Below are positions 1,773 through 8,249 of a stretch of DNA of 64,000 bases, in pieces. Every line of letters begins with the position of its first letter. Within the stretch, counting starts at the first letter, position 1. Location of the stretch: IMG/VR virus record IMGVR_UViG_3300037963_003542. One strand, given 5' to 3'. A program made the translations under genes and the position numbers. The notes beneath the pieces were generated by a model, which had not been told where the DNA came from, ran no database searches, and was given only the letters and a program-made list of their open reading frames with translations. Origin of the DNA: a virus.

Positions 1773-2199
1773 TTAAGTGCTCCTCTGTGAGTATGAGAAA
1801 TTCTAGTCTTCTATCTGCACACCACTCTCTCGCTGCTTCCCATTTCGCTTGATTGACGACATATGTAGAAACTTCATTCAAATAACGTGGTGTTTTACGT
1901 TTGGGTATTTTGGGTTGTAATGTTTGTTTCTTTGGTTTGACTTCAATTAAGTATTTTTTGATAGTATTGTTCTTATTTTGGATTTTGATGTAAAAATCAA
2001 CAAAGTATCGGTGAATCCTACCGTCTAGAGGAGAACGATAAGGAACAACGATTTCTTCACTACCCCATTCAAGCACATGATCATGGTCATCACACCATTT
2101 CATGAATTTAAGTTCCCATAATGATCTGTATATTACTAGTCTCGGATCACCTTTGTATTTTCTTGGATTCTTTGGTTGAAACTTGCCAGAATACGCCAT
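1765..2199 (-). CDS. gp4: head completion protein gp4 (TnsA-like endonuclease fold)
   Basis: MAYSGKF.PKNP.KYKGDP...YRSLWE.KFM.WCD...WGSEE...Y..P.D...HRYFVDF...EVKPK.QT. Confidence 0.93.
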   Translation of the reverse strand: MAYSGKFQPKNPRKYKGDPRLVIYRSLWELKFMKWCDDHDHVLEWGSEEIVVPYRSPLDGRIHRYFVDFYIKIQNKNNTIKKYLIEVKPKKQTLQPKIPKRKTPRYLNEVSTYVVNQAKWEAAREWCADRRLEFLILTEEHLNV

Positions 2200-2204
2200 A
2201 AATA
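2198..2204 (+). promoter_or_regulatory. T4-type late promoter (ATAAATA)
   Basis: ATAAATA 32 nt upstream of the likely ATG at 2236; resembles the T4 late consensus TATAAATA. Confidence 0.6.
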
Positions 2205-2223
2205 TAATTACAACAAGTACTTC

Positions 2224-2230
2224 TATTTAG
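2224..2230 (-). promoter_or_regulatory. late promoter variant (CTAAATA) for the gp4-gp2-gp48-gp53 operon
   Basis: TATTTAG on + reads CTAAATA on -, about 25 nt upstream of the gp4 ATG. Confidence 0.45.
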
Positions 2231-2235
2231 AGTTA

Positions 2236-2913
2236 ATGTCTATATCTAGACTAAGGGGGATATTCAATACTGACTTAGGTGGATCATATTCTAATGAGTA
2301 TGAGGTAAACTTCTCTTTTAATACTTCGCTTAATTCGGAGATCTTGAAAAGATTGAAGTATTATGGGTTTAATCCATCATCTACCAGTAGTGGTGCCTAT
2401 AGTGATATGATGTTCTTGTGCGATGAAGCATCATTGCCAGGAACTTTTGCTGCCACTAATGAGGTTGATGGTGTATATGCAGGTAGATTGATTCAGTATC
2501 CTCATGCTAAACTTTATAATGATATGCGTCTGAGTTTTATTCAGACCAATCAACTCAATCCATCAAAGTTCTTTGAAGCATGGATGGGTGGTATGTTCCC
2601 AGAGTATGGTATTGATGATGTTACTGAGATTCAACCAGCGGAAAGAAATAGAAGGAGACAAGTAAGTAATACTGTAGGACTTCGTTATTATAATGAGATG
2701 ACTTGTAATATGAGAGTACAGAAAACTTATAAAAATAATATTGATCCATCTGGAGAAAATTCATGCTATTATGATATGTTTAATGTATATCCTTATAGTA
2801 TTGAAAGTGTGCCATTGTCGTATGGTGCTAGCACACTAAATAAATTGAGAGTATCGTTCAGATACGAAAAACATGTTGTGATCTTCTACGATCAAAAAGG
2901 AGCAGAATTCTAA
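2236..2913 (+). CDS. tail tube initiator / tail tube-like protein (gp54/gp19 family)
   Basis: SNEYEVNF...FLCDEASLPG...YPHAKLYND..LSF...FFEAWM...NVYPYSIESVPLSYG...L.VSFRYE. Start moved to MSISRL (2236) because the track start overlaps gp4. Confidence 0.75.
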   Translation: MSISRLRGIFNTDLGGSYSNEYEVNFSFNTSLNSEILKRLKYYGFNPSSTSSGAYSDMMFLCDEASLPGTFAATNEVDGVYAGRLIQYPHAKLYNDMRLSFIQTNQLNPSKFFEAWMGGMFPEYGIDDVTEIQPAERNRRRQVSNTVGLRYYNEMTCNMRVQKTYKNNIDPSGENSCYYDMFNVYPYSIESVPLSYGASTLNKLRVSFRYEKHVVIFYDQKGAEF

Positions 2914-2927
2914 TTATTTTTTGAACT

Positions 2928-3641
2928 ATGTCATTACCTCAGATTAACACTCCCGTCCATGAATTGAAAATTCCATCTACAGGGAGAAAAGTAAAATATA
3001 GACCATTTGTAGTACGAGAAGAAAAAATTCTTCTCCTTGCATTGGAGTCTGAAGATCAAAACGAAGTCACCAATGCCATTACTCAGATCATTGGGAATTG
3101 TATTCAAACAAAGATTGATTTAGATAGTCTCTCTACATTTGATGTTGAGTATATCTTCCTCAATGTTCGTGCCAAGTCTGTTGGTGAAGTTCTTGAGTTT
3201 GCTATCACATGTCCTGATGATGGTGAGACACAAGCAGAAGTTGAGATCAATATTGATGATATTCAGGTAATCAAGGACAAGAGTCATACTGATACCATTG
3301 ACCTTGAGAATGGGTATTTTATTAAGATGAAATATCCTACAATGAAGTATATTATGGAAAAGAAACCTGATGACAAGAAAAGTCTTATTGATAGCACTTT
3401 TGAATATGCTGTTGAATGTATTGATACTATCTACAATGATGAGGAGACATGGGAAGCAGCAGATTCTACAAAGAAAGAACTTGAAGAGTTTGTTGAGCAG
3501 TTGAACTCTAAGCAGTATCAGAAACTGCAGGGGTTCTTTGCAACAATGCCTAAATTGTCTCATACAGTTAAGGTGACTAATCCTAAGACTGGTGTGAAGT
3601 CTGATGTTACAATTGAGGGACTGGCAAATTTTTTCGCCTAG
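2928..3641 (+). CDS. gp26: baseplate hub subunit / tail assembly chaperone gp26-like
   Basis: MSLPQINTP.HEL.IPSTG..VKYRPF.VREEKILLLA.ES...D.EYIFL.VRAKSVGE...C...IEGLANFFA. Confidence 0.9.
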   Translation: MSLPQINTPVHELKIPSTGRKVKYRPFVVREEKILLLALESEDQNEVTNAITQIIGNCIQTKIDLDSLSTFDVEYIFLNVRAKSVGEVLEFAITCPDDGETQAEVEINIDDIQVIKDKSHTDTIDLENGYFIKMKYPTMKYIMEKKPDDKKSLIDSTFEYAVECIDTIYNDEETWEAADSTKKELEEFVEQLNSKQYQKLQGFFATMPKLSHTVKVTNPKTGVKSDVTIEGLANFFA

Positions 3642-3668
3642 CGGTTTTCCAGAATAATCTGGAGAACT
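3626..3668 (+). promoter_or_regulatory. candidate programmed -1 frameshift signal (slippery site plus stimulatory hairpin)
   Basis: A AAT TTT TTC (3626-3635); spacer GCCTAGC; hairpin GGTTTTCCAGA-ATAA-TCTGGAGAACT (3643-3668), 11 bp with 2 G-U. Confidence 0.7.
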
Positions 3669-3817
3669 ATTATCGCCTAAATTTCAATCTCATGCAACAC
3701 CATAAATATAGCTTGACAGAGATTGAAAATATGATGCCGTGGGAGCGGGATGTTTATGTGAGTCTGTTAGTTGATTTTATTGAAAAAGAAAACGCACGCA
3801 GGGCCGCACAACAGTAA
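3626..3817 (+). CDS. gp51: gp51-like baseplate hub assembly peptide in the -1 frame of gp26 (first ATG only at 3692; probably reached by frameshift)
   Basis: Not in ORF track. The -1 frame reads KFFRLAVFQNNLENYYRLNFNLMQHHKYSLTEIENMMPWERDVYVSLLVDFIEKENARRAAQQ*, the cyanophage gp51 motif. Stop TAA 3815-3817 overlaps the next ATG. Confidence 0.8.
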   Translation, partial: KFFRLAVFQNNLENYYRLNFNLMQHHKYSLTEIENMMPWERDVYVSLLVDFIEKENARRAAQQ

Positions 3818-6222
3818 TGCCGATAAACCAGAGACCATCACCATCACCTCAAAATCCTGGACCTGGATCAGGCGGACCTGTACCTCAGAACCAGATGGTT
3901 CCTCAGGCTGCTGGTAATCCTCGTTATAAACCTGGAATAGGACCAGATCCTAATCCTAAGGTAGTAGTAAAGGCTGTCAATCCTCCTGTTACTCCTGATC
4001 AGGTAGTCTCTATGGCGGAGATTCCTGAGGCAGCAACTATTGAGTTGCCAAAAATTCAAAATATCAAGATTGCTCCTGTAAAGAATAAAACCATTCAGGG
4101 ACATCTAAAGGCGATTGAAGCAAAGATGGTCGCCACTGAGAAGTTGATGAAGGATATTGTCAAACTTCAGAAGGTACAGATTCATACTGAGAAAGAATTA
4201 TTTGAACGTAAGAGAGAGTTATATCAGAATACATTTGAAGAGTACTTATTAGATAAAACTATTGACTTTGAGGATCCTGAGAATCCTGATTGTACTTGTG
4301 TAAATTTACCAAAGAAAGGTGGACCAGGCGGTGGATTCCTTCCAAACCGAAACCGCCGCAATCGTGGTCGTAATAGACAACCATCAACAGCACCAGCACC
4401 ATCAACAGTACCATCAACAGCGAACAAACCTGCTAATGAACCAGCAACAGCTCCCGCACAACAACCCAACCTAGATCCAGGCAAAACACTACCTAGAAGA
4501 GAACAACCAGAAATACCTACTGGCACACCAGCATTTCCTTCTTTTAATCCACTTGATCTTTTGAAAATTATTCCATACCTTGTGCCTGGAATGGAACCAT
4601 CTACGCCATTGGGATTTAGTCGTGATCCTGGATTAGAAGAGTGGTTAAGAAAGGGTGAATTTGATCCCGTATCTCAGGCAGCTGCTCCTGCACTTTCACC
4701 AGAGGAAGCAAATAGACAACTTACTGAAGAAATTGAAGGTCAGCAAACTTCTTATAAACCATTTGAACCAGTTAAAGAGCAACCAGTATCACCAGATCCA
4801 GTTCCAGCAAATCCTCTACAAACAATGTTGGACGGATTTACTAATCCTAAATCATTAGCTGAAGTTACTGGTCTTCCCATCAGTGAAGATTTAGAATTCG
4901 CATTACAAACGGTCGTTGGTATGCAGGGTGGTAGCGCATTGCAAGTTGGTGCAGCAAAAGTACCTGCAATCGCAAACACTGTCAGAAGACTTGGTGTTCC
5001 ATTTGCTTCTAGAGTTCCTGGTCTCAAACGATTGTTTGGTTTGAGTGATGATGTTGCTGAGATTACTGTCAAGGCAGGTAAAGCAGGCACTGGTGCGGCA
5101 GATGATGTTGCTGCTACTACAACTACTGCTGTCCCTAAAACTAATGTTACTCCAGCAGCACGCTCTGTCCGTCGTACATCTTCGGGTGGTGAACGTTTGG
5201 GACGAAATGTTCGTCGTCAACGTGGAGGAAGAGGAAGAAGAGCTGATCGTGGTGCAGACAGGCGTATTCAGGAAGCACTGGATGATCCAGCGTTGCAGTC
5301 ATTGGATGATGCTCAGCGTCTCAGATCTCAAAATCCAGATTTACGATCCGCGCAAGAGGTAATGGATGATATTCCAATTCGCGTTCGTCCTGGTACAAAA
5401 CTTACCAAAGAAGAAATTGAACTTATTAATCAAGCGACTCGCCCAGGAACGAGTCAACAGGCTGCTAGGGGAATTCAGAAAAGATTGAATGTTCAGAATA
5501 AGTCAAACCCCGCAAATCAGGCGAGGGATACTGCTGCTAGAATGACAAAAAATAAAGCATCTGGTGGTATGGGTGATGTAGAATTGTTTAATAGTGACGC
5601 ATTGAATTATTTTAGAGGAATGTCAAGTAAAATTGTACCTATGGCAGATGGTGGTCTTGTCGGGTGGTGGAATAAAGGTAGGAACATGAGAGTTCCTTCT
5701 GAGAGTACTGCTAGTTGGAAAGACCTTATGGCAGATGATGCCAAACAGATTACTAGAACTAATAAAGCATTCAAGTCTGGTGCTACTGGTATTAAAGGAT
5801 GGAATCCTATCAAAGCATTTACACCTGAGATGGTAAGAACTGGTCCTACCCCTGCTGTTCGTCAGGCATTTGAAAGACCTGCCCGTACTGTTACACATCC
5901 ATTGATGATGGCATTAGAATTCATCATCAATGATTTGTTAATCAATCCAAGATCAACAGCAGTATATGATCAGGTTACTGGTCCTAATGCTTATTATAAT
6001 GATCCTGCTTATAAGGGTCCTATGCCATCACAGAATCTTGAGAATGCTCAAAGTAGCATGATGTCTGGCAACAATGATCAGAAACCTGAGGTTGTTCCCC
6101 TTCCGCCAGAATACATTAAGATTCCTGGTAAGAAGAACGCACCCAACTATGTTGGTACTGAATCACCTGATATTGAAATGAGAAGAAGTGTATTCACTAG
6201 ATCTTCATCACATATTGATTGA
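3817..6222 (+). CDS. putative tape-measure / baseplate hub-associated protein (Pro-rich, coiled-coil)
   Basis: 801 aa directly after gp26/gp51; coiled-coil segment IEAKMVATEKLMKDIVKLQK; ASGG and MADGGLVG motifs of the kind seen in tape-measure proteins. Assignment is positional. Confidence 0.45.
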   Translation: MPINQRPSPSPQNPGPGSGGPVPQNQMVPQAAGNPRYKPGIGPDPNPKVVVKAVNPPVTPDQVVSMAEIPEAATIELPKIQNIKIAPVKNKTIQGHLKAIEAKMVATEKLMKDIVKLQKVQIHTEKELFERKRELYQNTFEEYLLDKTIDFEDPENPDCTCVNLPKKGGPGGGFLPNRNRRNRGRNRQPSTAPAPSTVPSTANKPANEPATAPAQQPNLDPGKTLPRREQPEIPTGTPAFPSFNPLDLLKIIPYLVPGMEPSTPLGFSRDPGLEEWLRKGEFDPVSQAAAPALSPEEANRQLTEEIEGQQTSYKPFEPVKEQPVSPDPVPANPLQTMLDGFTNPKSLAEVTGLPISEDLEFALQTVVGMQGGSALQVGAAKVPAIANTVRRLGVPFASRVPGLKRLFGLSDDVAEITVKAGKAGTGAADDVAATTTTAVPKTNVTPAARSVRRTSSGGERLGRNVRRQRGGRGRRADRGADRRIQEALDDPALQSLDDAQRLRSQNPDLRSAQEVMDDIPIRVRPGTKLTKEEIELINQATRPGTSQQAARGIQKRLNVQNKSNPANQARDTAARMTKNKASGGMGDVELFNSDALNYFRGMSSKIVPMADGGLVGWWNKGRNMRVPSESTASWKDLMADDAKQITRTNKAFKSGATGIKGWNPIKAFTPEMVRTGPTPAVRQAFERPARTVTHPLMMALEFIINDLLINPRSTAVYDQVTGPNAYYNDPAYKGPMPSQNLENAQSSMMSGNNDQKPEVVPLPPEYIKIPGKKNAPNYVGTESPDIEMRRSVFTRSSSHID

Positions 6223-8249
6223 TGATTAAAGCAAAGACTAACATGATAGAACCAACTTCGGAGGCAGCAGAATCCGAAGTTTTTGTCGTAGCTGATAATA
6301 TCATACCTGTTCGTGTAGCATCTGTTGATACTATTCTCAATACAGAGTTTACTGAAGAAATGCAAGTTGTGCCTGAAAAACAGGTACAGCAACTTATTAT
6401 TGAGAATAAAACTACTAATCCATTGAGTGGATTCTTCGTCAGGATGGGTGGTTATCTTGACTCAATGGAGAACTTCCTCTCTGAAATGCATTCAAATTAT
6501 ATGAATGCGATTGAGCAGAAGAAATCATTATATCAAACTGAGGAGAGTGATCAAACACAGAGAACGAGTCGTTCAAAGAGAACTGCCAGAAAACTTTCTG
6601 ATGAAAGAAGATCTAATATGCCTAAACCTTTTGGTGACTTAGGTGATGACATTCTAGGTCTCATTGCTTTGAATGCTCTTGGTGGTGGTATAGATGATGC
6701 GATGAATATGGGTGGTGGTGAGATTCAGATAGTTCCTTATACACCAGTTGCAGGACAATTAGTTGCTAAGGGTAAAACTGATCCCACTCAAGGTGATAAG
6801 GGATATGTTAGTGGTTATCCTTTGACATCATTGTATGGATGGCGATGGGGTCGTATGCATGGTGGTGTTGATATTGGTGTACCAATCGGTACTAAATTTG
6901 CGTTGAAAGAAGATGCTGTAATTAAATTTGTTGGGTGGCAAGATCCTAACAATGCATACAAAGGTTATGGATTATTAGTTGATGCATGGGTTCCTAGTCT
7001 TAAGAAGATGTTCCGTTTTGGTCACCTTAGTAGTGTTGCGGTGAAGGAAGGTGAGACTATTAAGGCAGGAAGTGTTCTTGGTGCATCTGGTGATACTGGA
7101 TTATCTACTGGTCCACACTTCCATATTGAAGTTCATAGTCAGGTGACACGCACTTATGGTGGTGATGATCCTATGCCATATATTGACTATGTGATTGCTG
7201 GCGAAGAAGTTCAGCAGAGATCTGAAGGTTCTATTGAAAGAGTCGGTAGAGTCATGGTTGGTGAAGCTGGCACTGAATTCGTAGTTCCAATGAGTCAAAT
7301 GCCAATCTTCGCTGAACTTATGATGGAAGAGAAGATTAAGTCTCTAAATCCATATTATGTTTCTGATCATGGAGTTATTGATGATATTGGATTTGAGAGG
7401 AAATCTGGTTTTAGTCAGAATATGATGGCGTCTGGTGGCATTTCTGGTGCTATTCAATTTATCAAAAAACATGAAGGTCTTGGGGCATTTATTCCTGGTA
7501 CTGGTGGTGGAAATAGACTTGCTGATTATATTGGTGATGGTATGTCTACATCAGTGAAGGGAACTCCTAGATCAGTAGCATACAAATCTTCTACTGGATT
7601 ATATTCATATATTGATACCGAAGGTGTTCCTACTATTGGATATGGAACTACATTCTATGATGATATTTTTGGTGGTCAGCAACCAGTCAGAGATGGCGAC
7701 ACCAGCACAGTAGGTAAAATGGAATCTGTCATGAATAAGCATGTTAGACAGATTTATGATCAATATGATGAGTGGTATCCGTTATTCAAATACTTCAAAC
7801 CTAATCAGCAAGCAGGTATTATTTCATATCTCTATAATAGGGGACCTAATGCTATCGTAGGATATGGTCCTATGAGAAGAGCAATTAAGTCAGGTAATGT
7901 TCATGAACTTGCTCGCGAGATTGAGATTGATATTGCTAGTGTTGGACCCAAGAGAAGGAGAGAAGAAGCAGATTTACTTAGAACTGGTCCATCTAAGATT
8001 GTCGGACCTAAGATTGTCGGACCTAAAGAAGTTGGTCCTGGTAAAGTTGGATCTGGTATTCCTGGCGTTCCTGATTTGACTATTAAGAAGATGTTCCAGA
8101 GTTTTGGTAAACAATCTTCATTAAATACTATACCAGGCAATGAGCAAATGCGATTTGCTAGTGAGACACAAGAGCAATTCTCGTTTGACAATGTTAAAGG
8201 TGAGATCGTCGCACTCTATCAACCAACTGTCTATTATACTGAGACATGA
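6219..8249 (+). CDS. tail-associated protein with M23 peptidase and GH24-like lysozyme domains
   Basis: M23: WGRMHGGVDIG...GYG...FGHLS...G..G.STGPHFHIEV. Lysozyme: IKKHEG...Y.DTEGVPTIGYG...QQAGIISYLYNRG...RRREEA. Also VGEAGTEFVVP tape-measure-type motif. Confidence 0.8.
   Translation: MMIKAKTNMIEPTSEAAESEVFVVADNIIPVRVASVDTILNTEFTEEMQVVPEKQVQQLIIENKTTNPLSGFFVRMGGYLDSMENFLSEMHSNYMNAIEQKKSLYQTEESDQTQRTSRSKRTARKLSDERRSNMPKPFGDLGDDILGLIALNALGGGIDDAMNMGGGEIQIVPYTPVAGQLVAKGKTDPTQGDKGYVSGYPLTSLYGWRWGRMHGGVDIGVPIGTKFALKEDAVIKFVGWQDPNNAYKGYGLLVDAWVPSLKKMFRFGHLSSVAVKEGETIKAGSVLGASGDTGLSTGPHFHIEVHSQVTRTYGGDDPMPYIDYVIAGEEVQQRSEGSIERVGRVMVGEAGTEFVVPMSQMPIFAELMMEEKIKSLNPYYVSDHGVIDDIGFERKSGFSQNMMASGGISGAIQFIKKHEGLGAFIPGTGGGNRLADYIGDGMSTSVKGTPRSVAYKSSTGLYSYIDTEGVPTIGYGTTFYDDIFGGQQPVRDGDTSTVGKMESVMNKHVRQIYDQYDEWYPLFKYFKPNQQAGIISYLYNRGPNAIVGYGPMRRAIKSGNVHELAREIEIDIASVGPKRRREEADLLRTGPSKIVGPKIVGPKEVGPGKVGSGIPGVPDLTIKKMFQSFGKQSSLNTIPGNEQMRFASETQEQFSFDNVKGEIVALYQPTVYYTET
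7993..8034 (+). repeat. short 15-nt tandem repeat encoding KIVGP x2 (then KEVGP)
   Basis: TAAGATTGTCGGACC twice in tandem, plus a degenerate copy. Confidence 0.6.

Follow-up and report, generated by a model that had tools for sequence, protein, structure and literature searches.

Sampled records of cyanophages and other T4-like phages annotate gp51, the 'baseplate hub assembly catalyst', as a protein of 40-60 residues. This raises the question of whether so small a gp51 is made from a gene of its own or is the end of a longer protein. We examined this in a stretch of viral DNA of 64,000 nucleotides (nt) from IMG/VR record IMGVR_UViG_3300037963_003542 (the whole stretch is called the window here), which belongs to an uncultured marine T4-like phage and in which a gp26-like gene is followed by a short open reading frame (ORF) annotated as gp51. 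The original prediction, made from the letters of the window alone, was that a programmed -1 frameshift joins the two into a tail chaperone pair resembling that of the lambda G/GT genes. Our results suggest that -1 ribosomal frameshifting probably does join gp26 to gp51, giving a form of 237 amino acids (aa) and a form of 296 aa. This rests on a conserved site, on selection that acts in the -1 frame on both sides of the stop codon, on colinearity with T4 gp51, on a chaperone fold and on the single copy of the gene in relatives; the slip itself, its rate, the roles of both stimulators and the binding partners are what we infer.

The gp26/gp51 junction

The junction comprises the following features, where TAC stands for tail assembly chaperone.

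2928..3641, plus strand: gp26-like gene, short form (TAC-N), 237 aa, zero frame (PF12322, phrog_150, AlphaFold model)
3615..3619, plus strand: GAGGG, Shine-Dalgarno-like, a putative 5' stimulator 9-10 nt upstream of the heptamer
3629..3635, plus strand: slippery heptamer T_TTT_TTC, conserved in frame among relatives
3639..3641, plus strand: zero-frame stop TAG of the short form (reading of the sequence)
3643..3668, plus strand: hairpin with an 11-bp stem and ATAA loop, a probable 3' stimulator (folding and pairing within the clade)
3635..3817, plus strand: -1 frame extension (TAC-C), 60 codons and stop TAA (matches to phrog_634, phrog_150 and T4 gp51)
3692..3817, plus strand: 41-aa ORF annotated by gene callers as gp51, starting at the first ATG of the -1 frame

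The gp26-like gene ends GCA AAT TTT TTC GCC TAG. Two overlapping heptamers had been proposed here and both are present, A_AAT_TTT at 3626-3632 and T_TTT_TTC at 3629-3635. The first is specific to the clade of the window, other clades having AGT, TCT, GCT or GAT before the run, and we therefore rejected it as a general signal. An open -1 frame runs from 3617 to 3817, across the zero-frame stop, and reads ..GKFFRLAVFQNNLENYYRLNFNLMQHHKYSLTEIENMMPWERD..; from the heptamer onward its reading is FFRLAVFQNNLENYYRLNFNLMQHHKYSLTEIENMMPWERD. The gp26-like product matches PF12322 T4_baseplate (E 1.5e-72, 244 bits, cut-off 24.5) and covers positions 5-232 of the 282 of phrog_150 ('baseplate hub'), the gene being only 54% identical to those of cultured phages. 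The -1 peptide matches phrog_634, which is gp51 under the same 'baseplate hub assembly catalyst' label, at E 3.9e-29, and it also matches phrog_150 at positions 230-276, abutting the part covered by gp26.

The first ATG, GTG or TTG of the -1 frame is the ATG at 3692. It lies after the LENYY..NF.L segment and 19 conserved codons, and no purine-rich Shine-Dalgarno motif was found before it in the window. The 41-aa ORF annotated from this ATG does not contain the conserved FFR..LExYY..NF segment, which is under purifying selection upstream of it, and in the window the C-terminal extension of gp51 is present only through the change of frame. The heptamers, the open -1 frame, the ATG without a spaced Shine-Dalgarno motif and the hairpin are thus all in the sequence as first described. 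The fusion, put at about 295 aa in the original prediction, is indeed predicted, with a length of 296 aa (gp26 residues 1-236 plus 60).

Conservation of the heptamer and selection on the -1 frame

Relatives of the locus were taken from IMG/VR with three queries and from annotated phage records, and their selection did not demand the heptamer; an eight-sequence alignment across all lineages contained no stretch fit for a locus search. Changes were counted by parsimony on a FastTree phylogeny of 179 distinct sequences with a total branch length of 29. About 200 of the relatives are not truncated and have a small gp51 downstream; in 199 of these, T_TTT_TT(C/A/T) stands close to the stop codon of gp26 and in one and the same frame. 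The collected loci without the heptamer are confined to truncated ones, a single record from the Ackermannviridae and the T4-type controls. Synechococcus phage S-SCSM1 is the one relative whose gp51 is not in the -1 frame. Aligning the junctions, which had been suggested as a check, therefore shows that the frame relations are not random.

Within the heptamer the third codon positions have changed 0, 0 and 2 times on the tree; at neighbouring third positions the number is mostly 42-62 (full range 18-62). The run of T is exactly six long in 178 of the 179 relatives and is never expanded. The codon before it always ends in T (TCT in 25/25 cases against a background of 54%, GCT in 12/12 against 34%), and the second Phe is encoded by the minor codon TTC in 106/108 cases, against 27% in the background. 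Judged from these counts, the invariance of T_TTT_TTC at the junction is far beyond chance. In E. coli the H_HH.U_UU.Y class, which includes U_UU.U_UU.C, ranks with the heptamers of highest efficiency (PMC4066793).

The stop codon that follows varies among relatives between TAG, TAA and TGA while the heptamer stays, and the last sense codon varies too. The three positions of that codon, -4, -3 and -2, are conserved, conserved and free in the -1 frame, with 2, 5 and 36 changes respectively; in the zero frame they are third, first and second codon positions. The -1 residue is Arg at 151 of 178 junctions and Gln at 22, while the zero-frame residue wanders between A, S, G, V, E, N and T. In one clade TTA GAA replaces TTC GCN, so that both zero-frame residues are changed and the -1 codon is still an Arg codon, AGA. 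On the evidence of its substitutions, then, the last sense codon of gp26 evolves as an Arg (CGN) codon of the -1 frame. Substitutions show the codon periodicity of the -1 frame already ahead of the stop and from there on, long before the ATG at 3692.

These data also bear on whether the junction could be an artefact, either a homopolymer miscalled in sequencing or assembly or a gene in decay. Public data do contain homopolymer errors at this site, as in the six proteins P0001-P0006 of the European Nucleotide Archive (ENA), which read through in frame, and in Stenotrophomonas phage IME-SM1, which has T5. In the window's own case, contigs of two unrelated DNA studies (X10 and X5) are identical through the run, and the arrangement is shared under purifying selection by about 200 relatives. 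An artefact is therefore very improbable, and for practical purposes conservation and the independent assemblies refute it.

Several of the exceptional sequences merit description. Of the in-frame gp26-gp51 'fusions' in ENA, six lack their N-terminal end and one contains additional frame noise, which is what homopolymer errors in long-read contigs would produce; P0001-P0006, which come from a metagenome, were considered as natural in-frame fusions and, being truncated and likely to carry such errors, were not counted as evidence. P0009 is a full-length in-frame fusion with an altered junction (MGQAF), and its nearest IMG/VR relative (L138) has a normal heptamer. The precomputed domain lists of the ENA fusions place PF28602 on the gp51 part. 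In IME-SM1 (NC_054952.1, L218:1090-1230) the annotated 281-aa 'baseplate hub subunit' reads on into 28 unrelated residues and the gp51-like peptide is in the +1 frame; its T5 run suggests either a +1 variant or a sequencing error in the homopolymer. In Klebsiella phage cp18 (L004:2280-2470) and Salmonella phage SJ2 (L225:1115-1300), both of the Ackermannviridae, the -1 frame encodes the gp51-like peptide, with conservation reaching the gp26 stop. Neither has an X_XXY_YYZ heptamer (the sequence is ATT TTC ATT TAA) or an ATG or GTG until past the conserved L.SYF motif.

RNA elements around the heptamer

The hairpin at 3643-3668, with an 11-bp stem and a 4-nt loop, begins after a spacer of 7 nt and folds at -15.3 kcal/mol (z -3.3 against shuffles). 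Among nine distinct members of the window's clade 99% of cells are paired, and five of five variable pairs stay paired. The sister clade has a different hairpin of 10 bp at the same place, with 15 double-change cells as compared with 4.0 +/- 1.5 in shuffles (0/500). The covariation that was to be looked for is thus found in the sister clade, and in the window's clade the pairs are maintained. Measured against synonymous recoding, the 179 relatives have an excess of RNA structure downstream (mean z -2.15, 61% below -2) and no excess upstream of the run (z +0.28). The structure is spaced 5-7 nt after the heptamer, as for ribosomal stimulators, and the hairpin of the window is probably a 3' stimulator. 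On the other side of the heptamer, 137 of the 179 relatives have GAGG at the equivalent place, whereas the rest of these genes prefers GAA to GAG for a Glu that precedes Gly (48 versus 8). By analogy with dnaX, the GAGGG of the window is possibly a 5' stimulator of the slip.

The same 296-aa protein could also arise by transcriptional slippage, in which RNA polymerase would add a U in the T6 run of some transcripts, followed by normal translation. The site is a homopolymer run, as this requires, both the product and the conservation at the protein level would be identical, and rare RNA variants are invisible in contigs. Known transcriptional slippage sites are usually longer than T6, and here the run keeps its length of six without expansion. 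The excess structure is downstream at 5-7 nt rather than upstream in the nascent RNA, and the enrichment of GAGG would have no role. Contigs from two RNA libraries of one study (X17 and X18) span 3533-3815 without an indel and have an unaltered run; these libraries may also hold DNA, and the sequencing runs were seen as contigs and are therefore silent on rare variants. Taken together, we consider transcriptional slippage quite unlikely as the source of the long form.

Relationship to gp26 and gp51 of T4

The T4-type gp26 genes have a separate, divergently transcribed gene 51 adjacent to them. They keep the Phe-Phe pair, which is coded TTC TTT after a Glu codon and so forms no heptamer. T4 gp51 (249 aa) has PF12322 over residues 1-201 followed by a C-terminal extension and covers positions 13-280 of phrog_150, while T4 gp26 covers positions 14-235. 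The -1 peptide of the window matches residues 200-244 of T4 gp51 with 33% identity (E 3e-6), and the match starts at the junction Phe. Comparison with the full-length T4 protein, another of the checks proposed, therefore finds the predicted fusion colinear with T4 gp51, and from this colinearity the short product of the window corresponds to gp26 and the predicted 296-aa product to gp51. The two systems share the family PF12322 and this correspondence of short and long forms. They differ in that T4 has two divergently transcribed paralogous genes without a heptamer, whereas the window has one gene and a recoding site.

T4 gp51 is reported to be needed for assembly and absent from the particle, and the long form is essential in T4 (PMC3004832). 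Three near-complete relatives, one of 177.7 kb (91% gp26 identity), a complete one of 258 kb and one of 174.7 kb, have one PF12322 gene each and therefore no separate gene for a long form.

Is gp51 made as a separate protein?

Several observations weigh against the joining of gp26 to gp51 by a ribosomal frameshift. In the window's clade the hairpin shows no double compensatory change among the nine distinct members, and one large clade has no consensus hairpin. Evidence at the protein level cannot separate ribosomal from transcriptional slippage. A candidate start precedes the conserved LExYY motif at 122 of 178 junctions, mostly as an ATG at +5 or as TAATG or TGATG. Finally, in Synechococcus phage S-SCSM1 (MK867354.2, L001:2190-2410), and in no other relative, gp51 lies in the +1 frame. 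The stop is followed by 11 extra bases, and an ATG belonging to gp51 itself precedes the LENYF motif; S-SCSM1 retains the heptamer, but a -1 slip would add four residues only. S-SCSM1 either makes gp51 separately or slips +1 on the same run.

The candidate starts suggest an explanation without a fusion, in which a separate small gp51 would be made by termination-reinitiation, from a non-canonical codon or from the ATG at 3692, and the heptamer would be kept for some other reason. An ATG lies 5 nt after the stop in 83 of 178 relatives, KVP40, Cr30 and RSP15 have TAATG or TGATG, Vibrio phages D504 and 207E48.1 have TAATG without a heptamer, and the ATG of S-SCSM1 is in another frame. However, a search for a start linked to a Shine-Dalgarno motif upstream of LENYY found no conserved, well-spaced one. 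At 56 of the 178 distinct junctions there is no ATG, GTG or TTG at all before the conserved motif, a state that has changed at least 8 times on the tree and that includes the window, Syn9, S-T4, S-CAM4, S-SSM4, phiAS5 and Pseudomonas phage Milchi. Phages of the P-SSM type lack a start as well. In the window itself no such codon precedes 3692, yet purifying selection acts in the -1 frame on the 19 codons before it. Reinitiating ribosomes would not reach the -1-frame Arg codon, which precedes the stop. Half of the lineages have L, V or I where the +5 ATG would encode Met, T4 gp51 has Val, and the position therefore behaves as an internal hydrophobic residue. A separate gp51 also leaves unexplained the synonymous-site invariance and the absence of the heptamer from T4-type genes, and the three near-complete relatives have no long paralogue of the gene 51 type, even though T4 cannot do without its long form.

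For these reasons we regard a separate gp51 without a fusion as improbable. A free gp51 peptide may be made in some lineages; it cannot explain the window. The claim that the small gp51 is really the C-terminal extension of a fusion is thus supported, with the reservation that the possible starts in 122 of 178 relatives make a free peptide conceivable, and most likely the annotated small gp51 is only the tail end of a 296-residue chaperone.

It is possible, though we find it rather doubtful, that a cyanophage-type locus has three products: the short form, a long form frameshifted by a dnaX-like signal of three parts (GAGG, U_UUU_UUC and the hairpin) and, where an AUG follows the stop by 2-14 nt, as in two thirds of lineages, a free C-terminal peptide made by reinitiation. 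Lineages would then drift between frameshift-only (as in the window), mixed, coupled-start-only (some Vibrio phages) and two-gene (T4) arrangements, which would be several solutions to one stoichiometry problem. In Vibrio phages D504 (L221) and 207E48.1 (L222) the gp51-like ORF that begins at the stop-overlapping TAATG includes all of the conserved region; these phages solve the same problem by a coupled start.

The chaperone fold of gp26

An AlphaFold model of the window's gp26 (predicted local distance difference test, pLDDT, of 87) was aligned to 48,161 PDB chains. The first three ranks are taken by 3fgx (Z 7.9), 2ob9 (HK97 gp13; Z 7.6) and 3klu (YqbN; Z 7.4), with 83-85 aligned residues each, which is most of each chain, on gp26 residues 1-87/95; the next unrelated row has a Z of 3.9. 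The scores are middling, with Z below 8, a root mean square deviation of about 4 Å and sequence identity of 7-13%. According to PMC9603447, which cites Pell et al. 2013, exactly these structures, 3FGX (Rbstp2171), 2OB9 and 3KLU, are the solved tail assembly chaperones. A sequence search of the PDB gave no match, and Foldseek against the PDB gave no significant one, with 2ob9 at E 1.1 and probability 0.63. The ranking of three of three solved chaperones first is nevertheless difficult to attribute to chance. The same three structures lead for a model of the relative P0009, in which the extension has a shallow alignment and a pLDDT of 47-86; we drew no conclusion on the fold of the extension. 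The proposed analogy with the G/GT type of chaperone thus gains structural support from the fold of the N-terminal domain of gp26, with these matches the best of all the chains compared.

The fourth-best match, to gp26 residues 6-91 (Z 5.0, 84 aligned residues), is PDB chain 5ir0_B, which is ORF19 of an element of Vibrio cholerae resembling a phage-inducible chromosomal island (PICI). This structural similarity suggests that a PICI-like satellite of Vibrio cholerae may encode a chaperone-like protein.

A model for the locus

In the model that we propose, the gp26-like gene encodes the tail assembly chaperone of a T4-like phage. Most ribosomes would terminate at the TAG at 3639, which yields the short form of 237 aa (TAC-N), the counterpart of T4 gp26. 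A minority would slip back one base with both tRNA-Phe on T_TTT_TTC, continue with CGC CTA GCG onward, and make the 296-aa long form (TAC-NC), equivalent to T4 gp51, of which the last 60 residues would be the gp51 of the databases. Such a product would hold the junction peptide SDVTIEGLANFFR, as distinct from SDVTIEGLANFFA, the peptide without the junction. As in dnaX, slipping would be made more frequent by the hairpin, which lies 7 nt downstream, and perhaps also by the GAGGG, 9-10 nt upstream. If the two forms work like lambda G/GT, their common N-terminal chaperone domain would cover the tape measure or hub protein, and another part of the tail would be recruited by the extension.

The resemblance to lambda gpG/gpGT extends to one gene with a short and a frameshift-extended form, a slip site at the 3' end of the short ORF, a downstream ORF without a start of its own, a position after the tube gene and the N-terminal chaperone fold. 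There are also differences. The lambda heptamer is G_GGA_AAG and that of the window T_TTT_TTC, gp26 is larger, with a second domain of 150 residues as compared with solved chaperones of about 100 residues, and the gene downstream in the window gave no match to a tape measure. The conservation of the -1 frameshift in tail chaperone genes was described by Levin, Hendrix and Casjens (1993) and Xu, Hendrix and Duda (2004), as summarised in PMC5009743. With E. coli dnaX the window shares three elements at similar spacing, GAGG 10 nt upstream, a heptamer, and a hairpin 7 nt downstream; the heptamers are different, and the shift lengthens the product in the window and shortens it in dnaX.

Earlier work and implications

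The original prediction took the frameshift to be undescribed for T4-like phages. This does not hold, since the gp26/gp51 chaperone pair was published in 2022: a passage of PMC12846349 gives Vladimirov, Gautam and Davidson (Virology 2022;566:9-15) as the source for TAC-N and TAC-NC of T4-like phages, and treats polyT slippery sequences in their TAC-N genes as known -1 signals. Apart from that citation, full-text searches on gp26, gp51 and frameshifting returned no direct report, and the PRFect paper and one part of the Atkins 2016 review make no mention of baseplate or cyanophage. With the principle in print since 2022, the window is one more example, so far without annotation, rather than a new principle, and its status as a new example of the known chaperone pair is well supported. 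What is added here is independent comparative evidence on the mechanism, some of which the 2022 paper may already contain, namely the suppression of synonymous change, the -1-frame Arg codon, structure that is downstream only and covaries, the GAGG, the single copy and the fold match.

Correcting the annotation of gp51 changes the gene calls, protein families and structure predictions of a core tail gene. In addition, gp26 and gp51 of T4, long listed as hub assembly factors without a mechanism, gain a model as a chaperone pair of the G/GT type.

Neighbouring genes

The junction lies in a T4-like block of tail genes that encodes a gp48-like tube cap, a gp2-like end protector, a gp4-like head closure protein and a tube-like protein, and the gp26-like gene is flanked as follows.

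2176..2913, plus strand: tail tube-like gene (PF23849 Phage_TTP_2, E 9e-29; phrog_45 tail tube)
3817..6222, plus strand: downstream gene, 801 aa, the ATG of which overlaps the TAA of the extension (TAATG)

The tube-like gene is directly 5' of the gp26-like gene, and a tube gene followed by a chaperone gene is the usual order, which the order in the window fits. Tape-measure-like genes had been placed directly downstream, and this could not be established. The 801-aa product of 3817-6222 is predicted to be disordered, matches no Pfam or PHROG family and has no similarity to T4 gp29, and as a candidate tape measure it was not borne out. The 676-aa product of the next gene (6219-8249) matches tape-measure families only through its M23 peptidase domain.

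The TAATG at 3815-3819 combines the stop codon of the extension with the first codon of the 801-aa gene, and shifted ribosomes may be coupled to the translation of that gene. The 676-aa protein has its M23 metallopeptidase domain at residues of about 170-340 and an endolysin-like region at 397-592, and its position suggests a tail-associated cell-wall hydrolase with a role analogous to that of T4 gp5.

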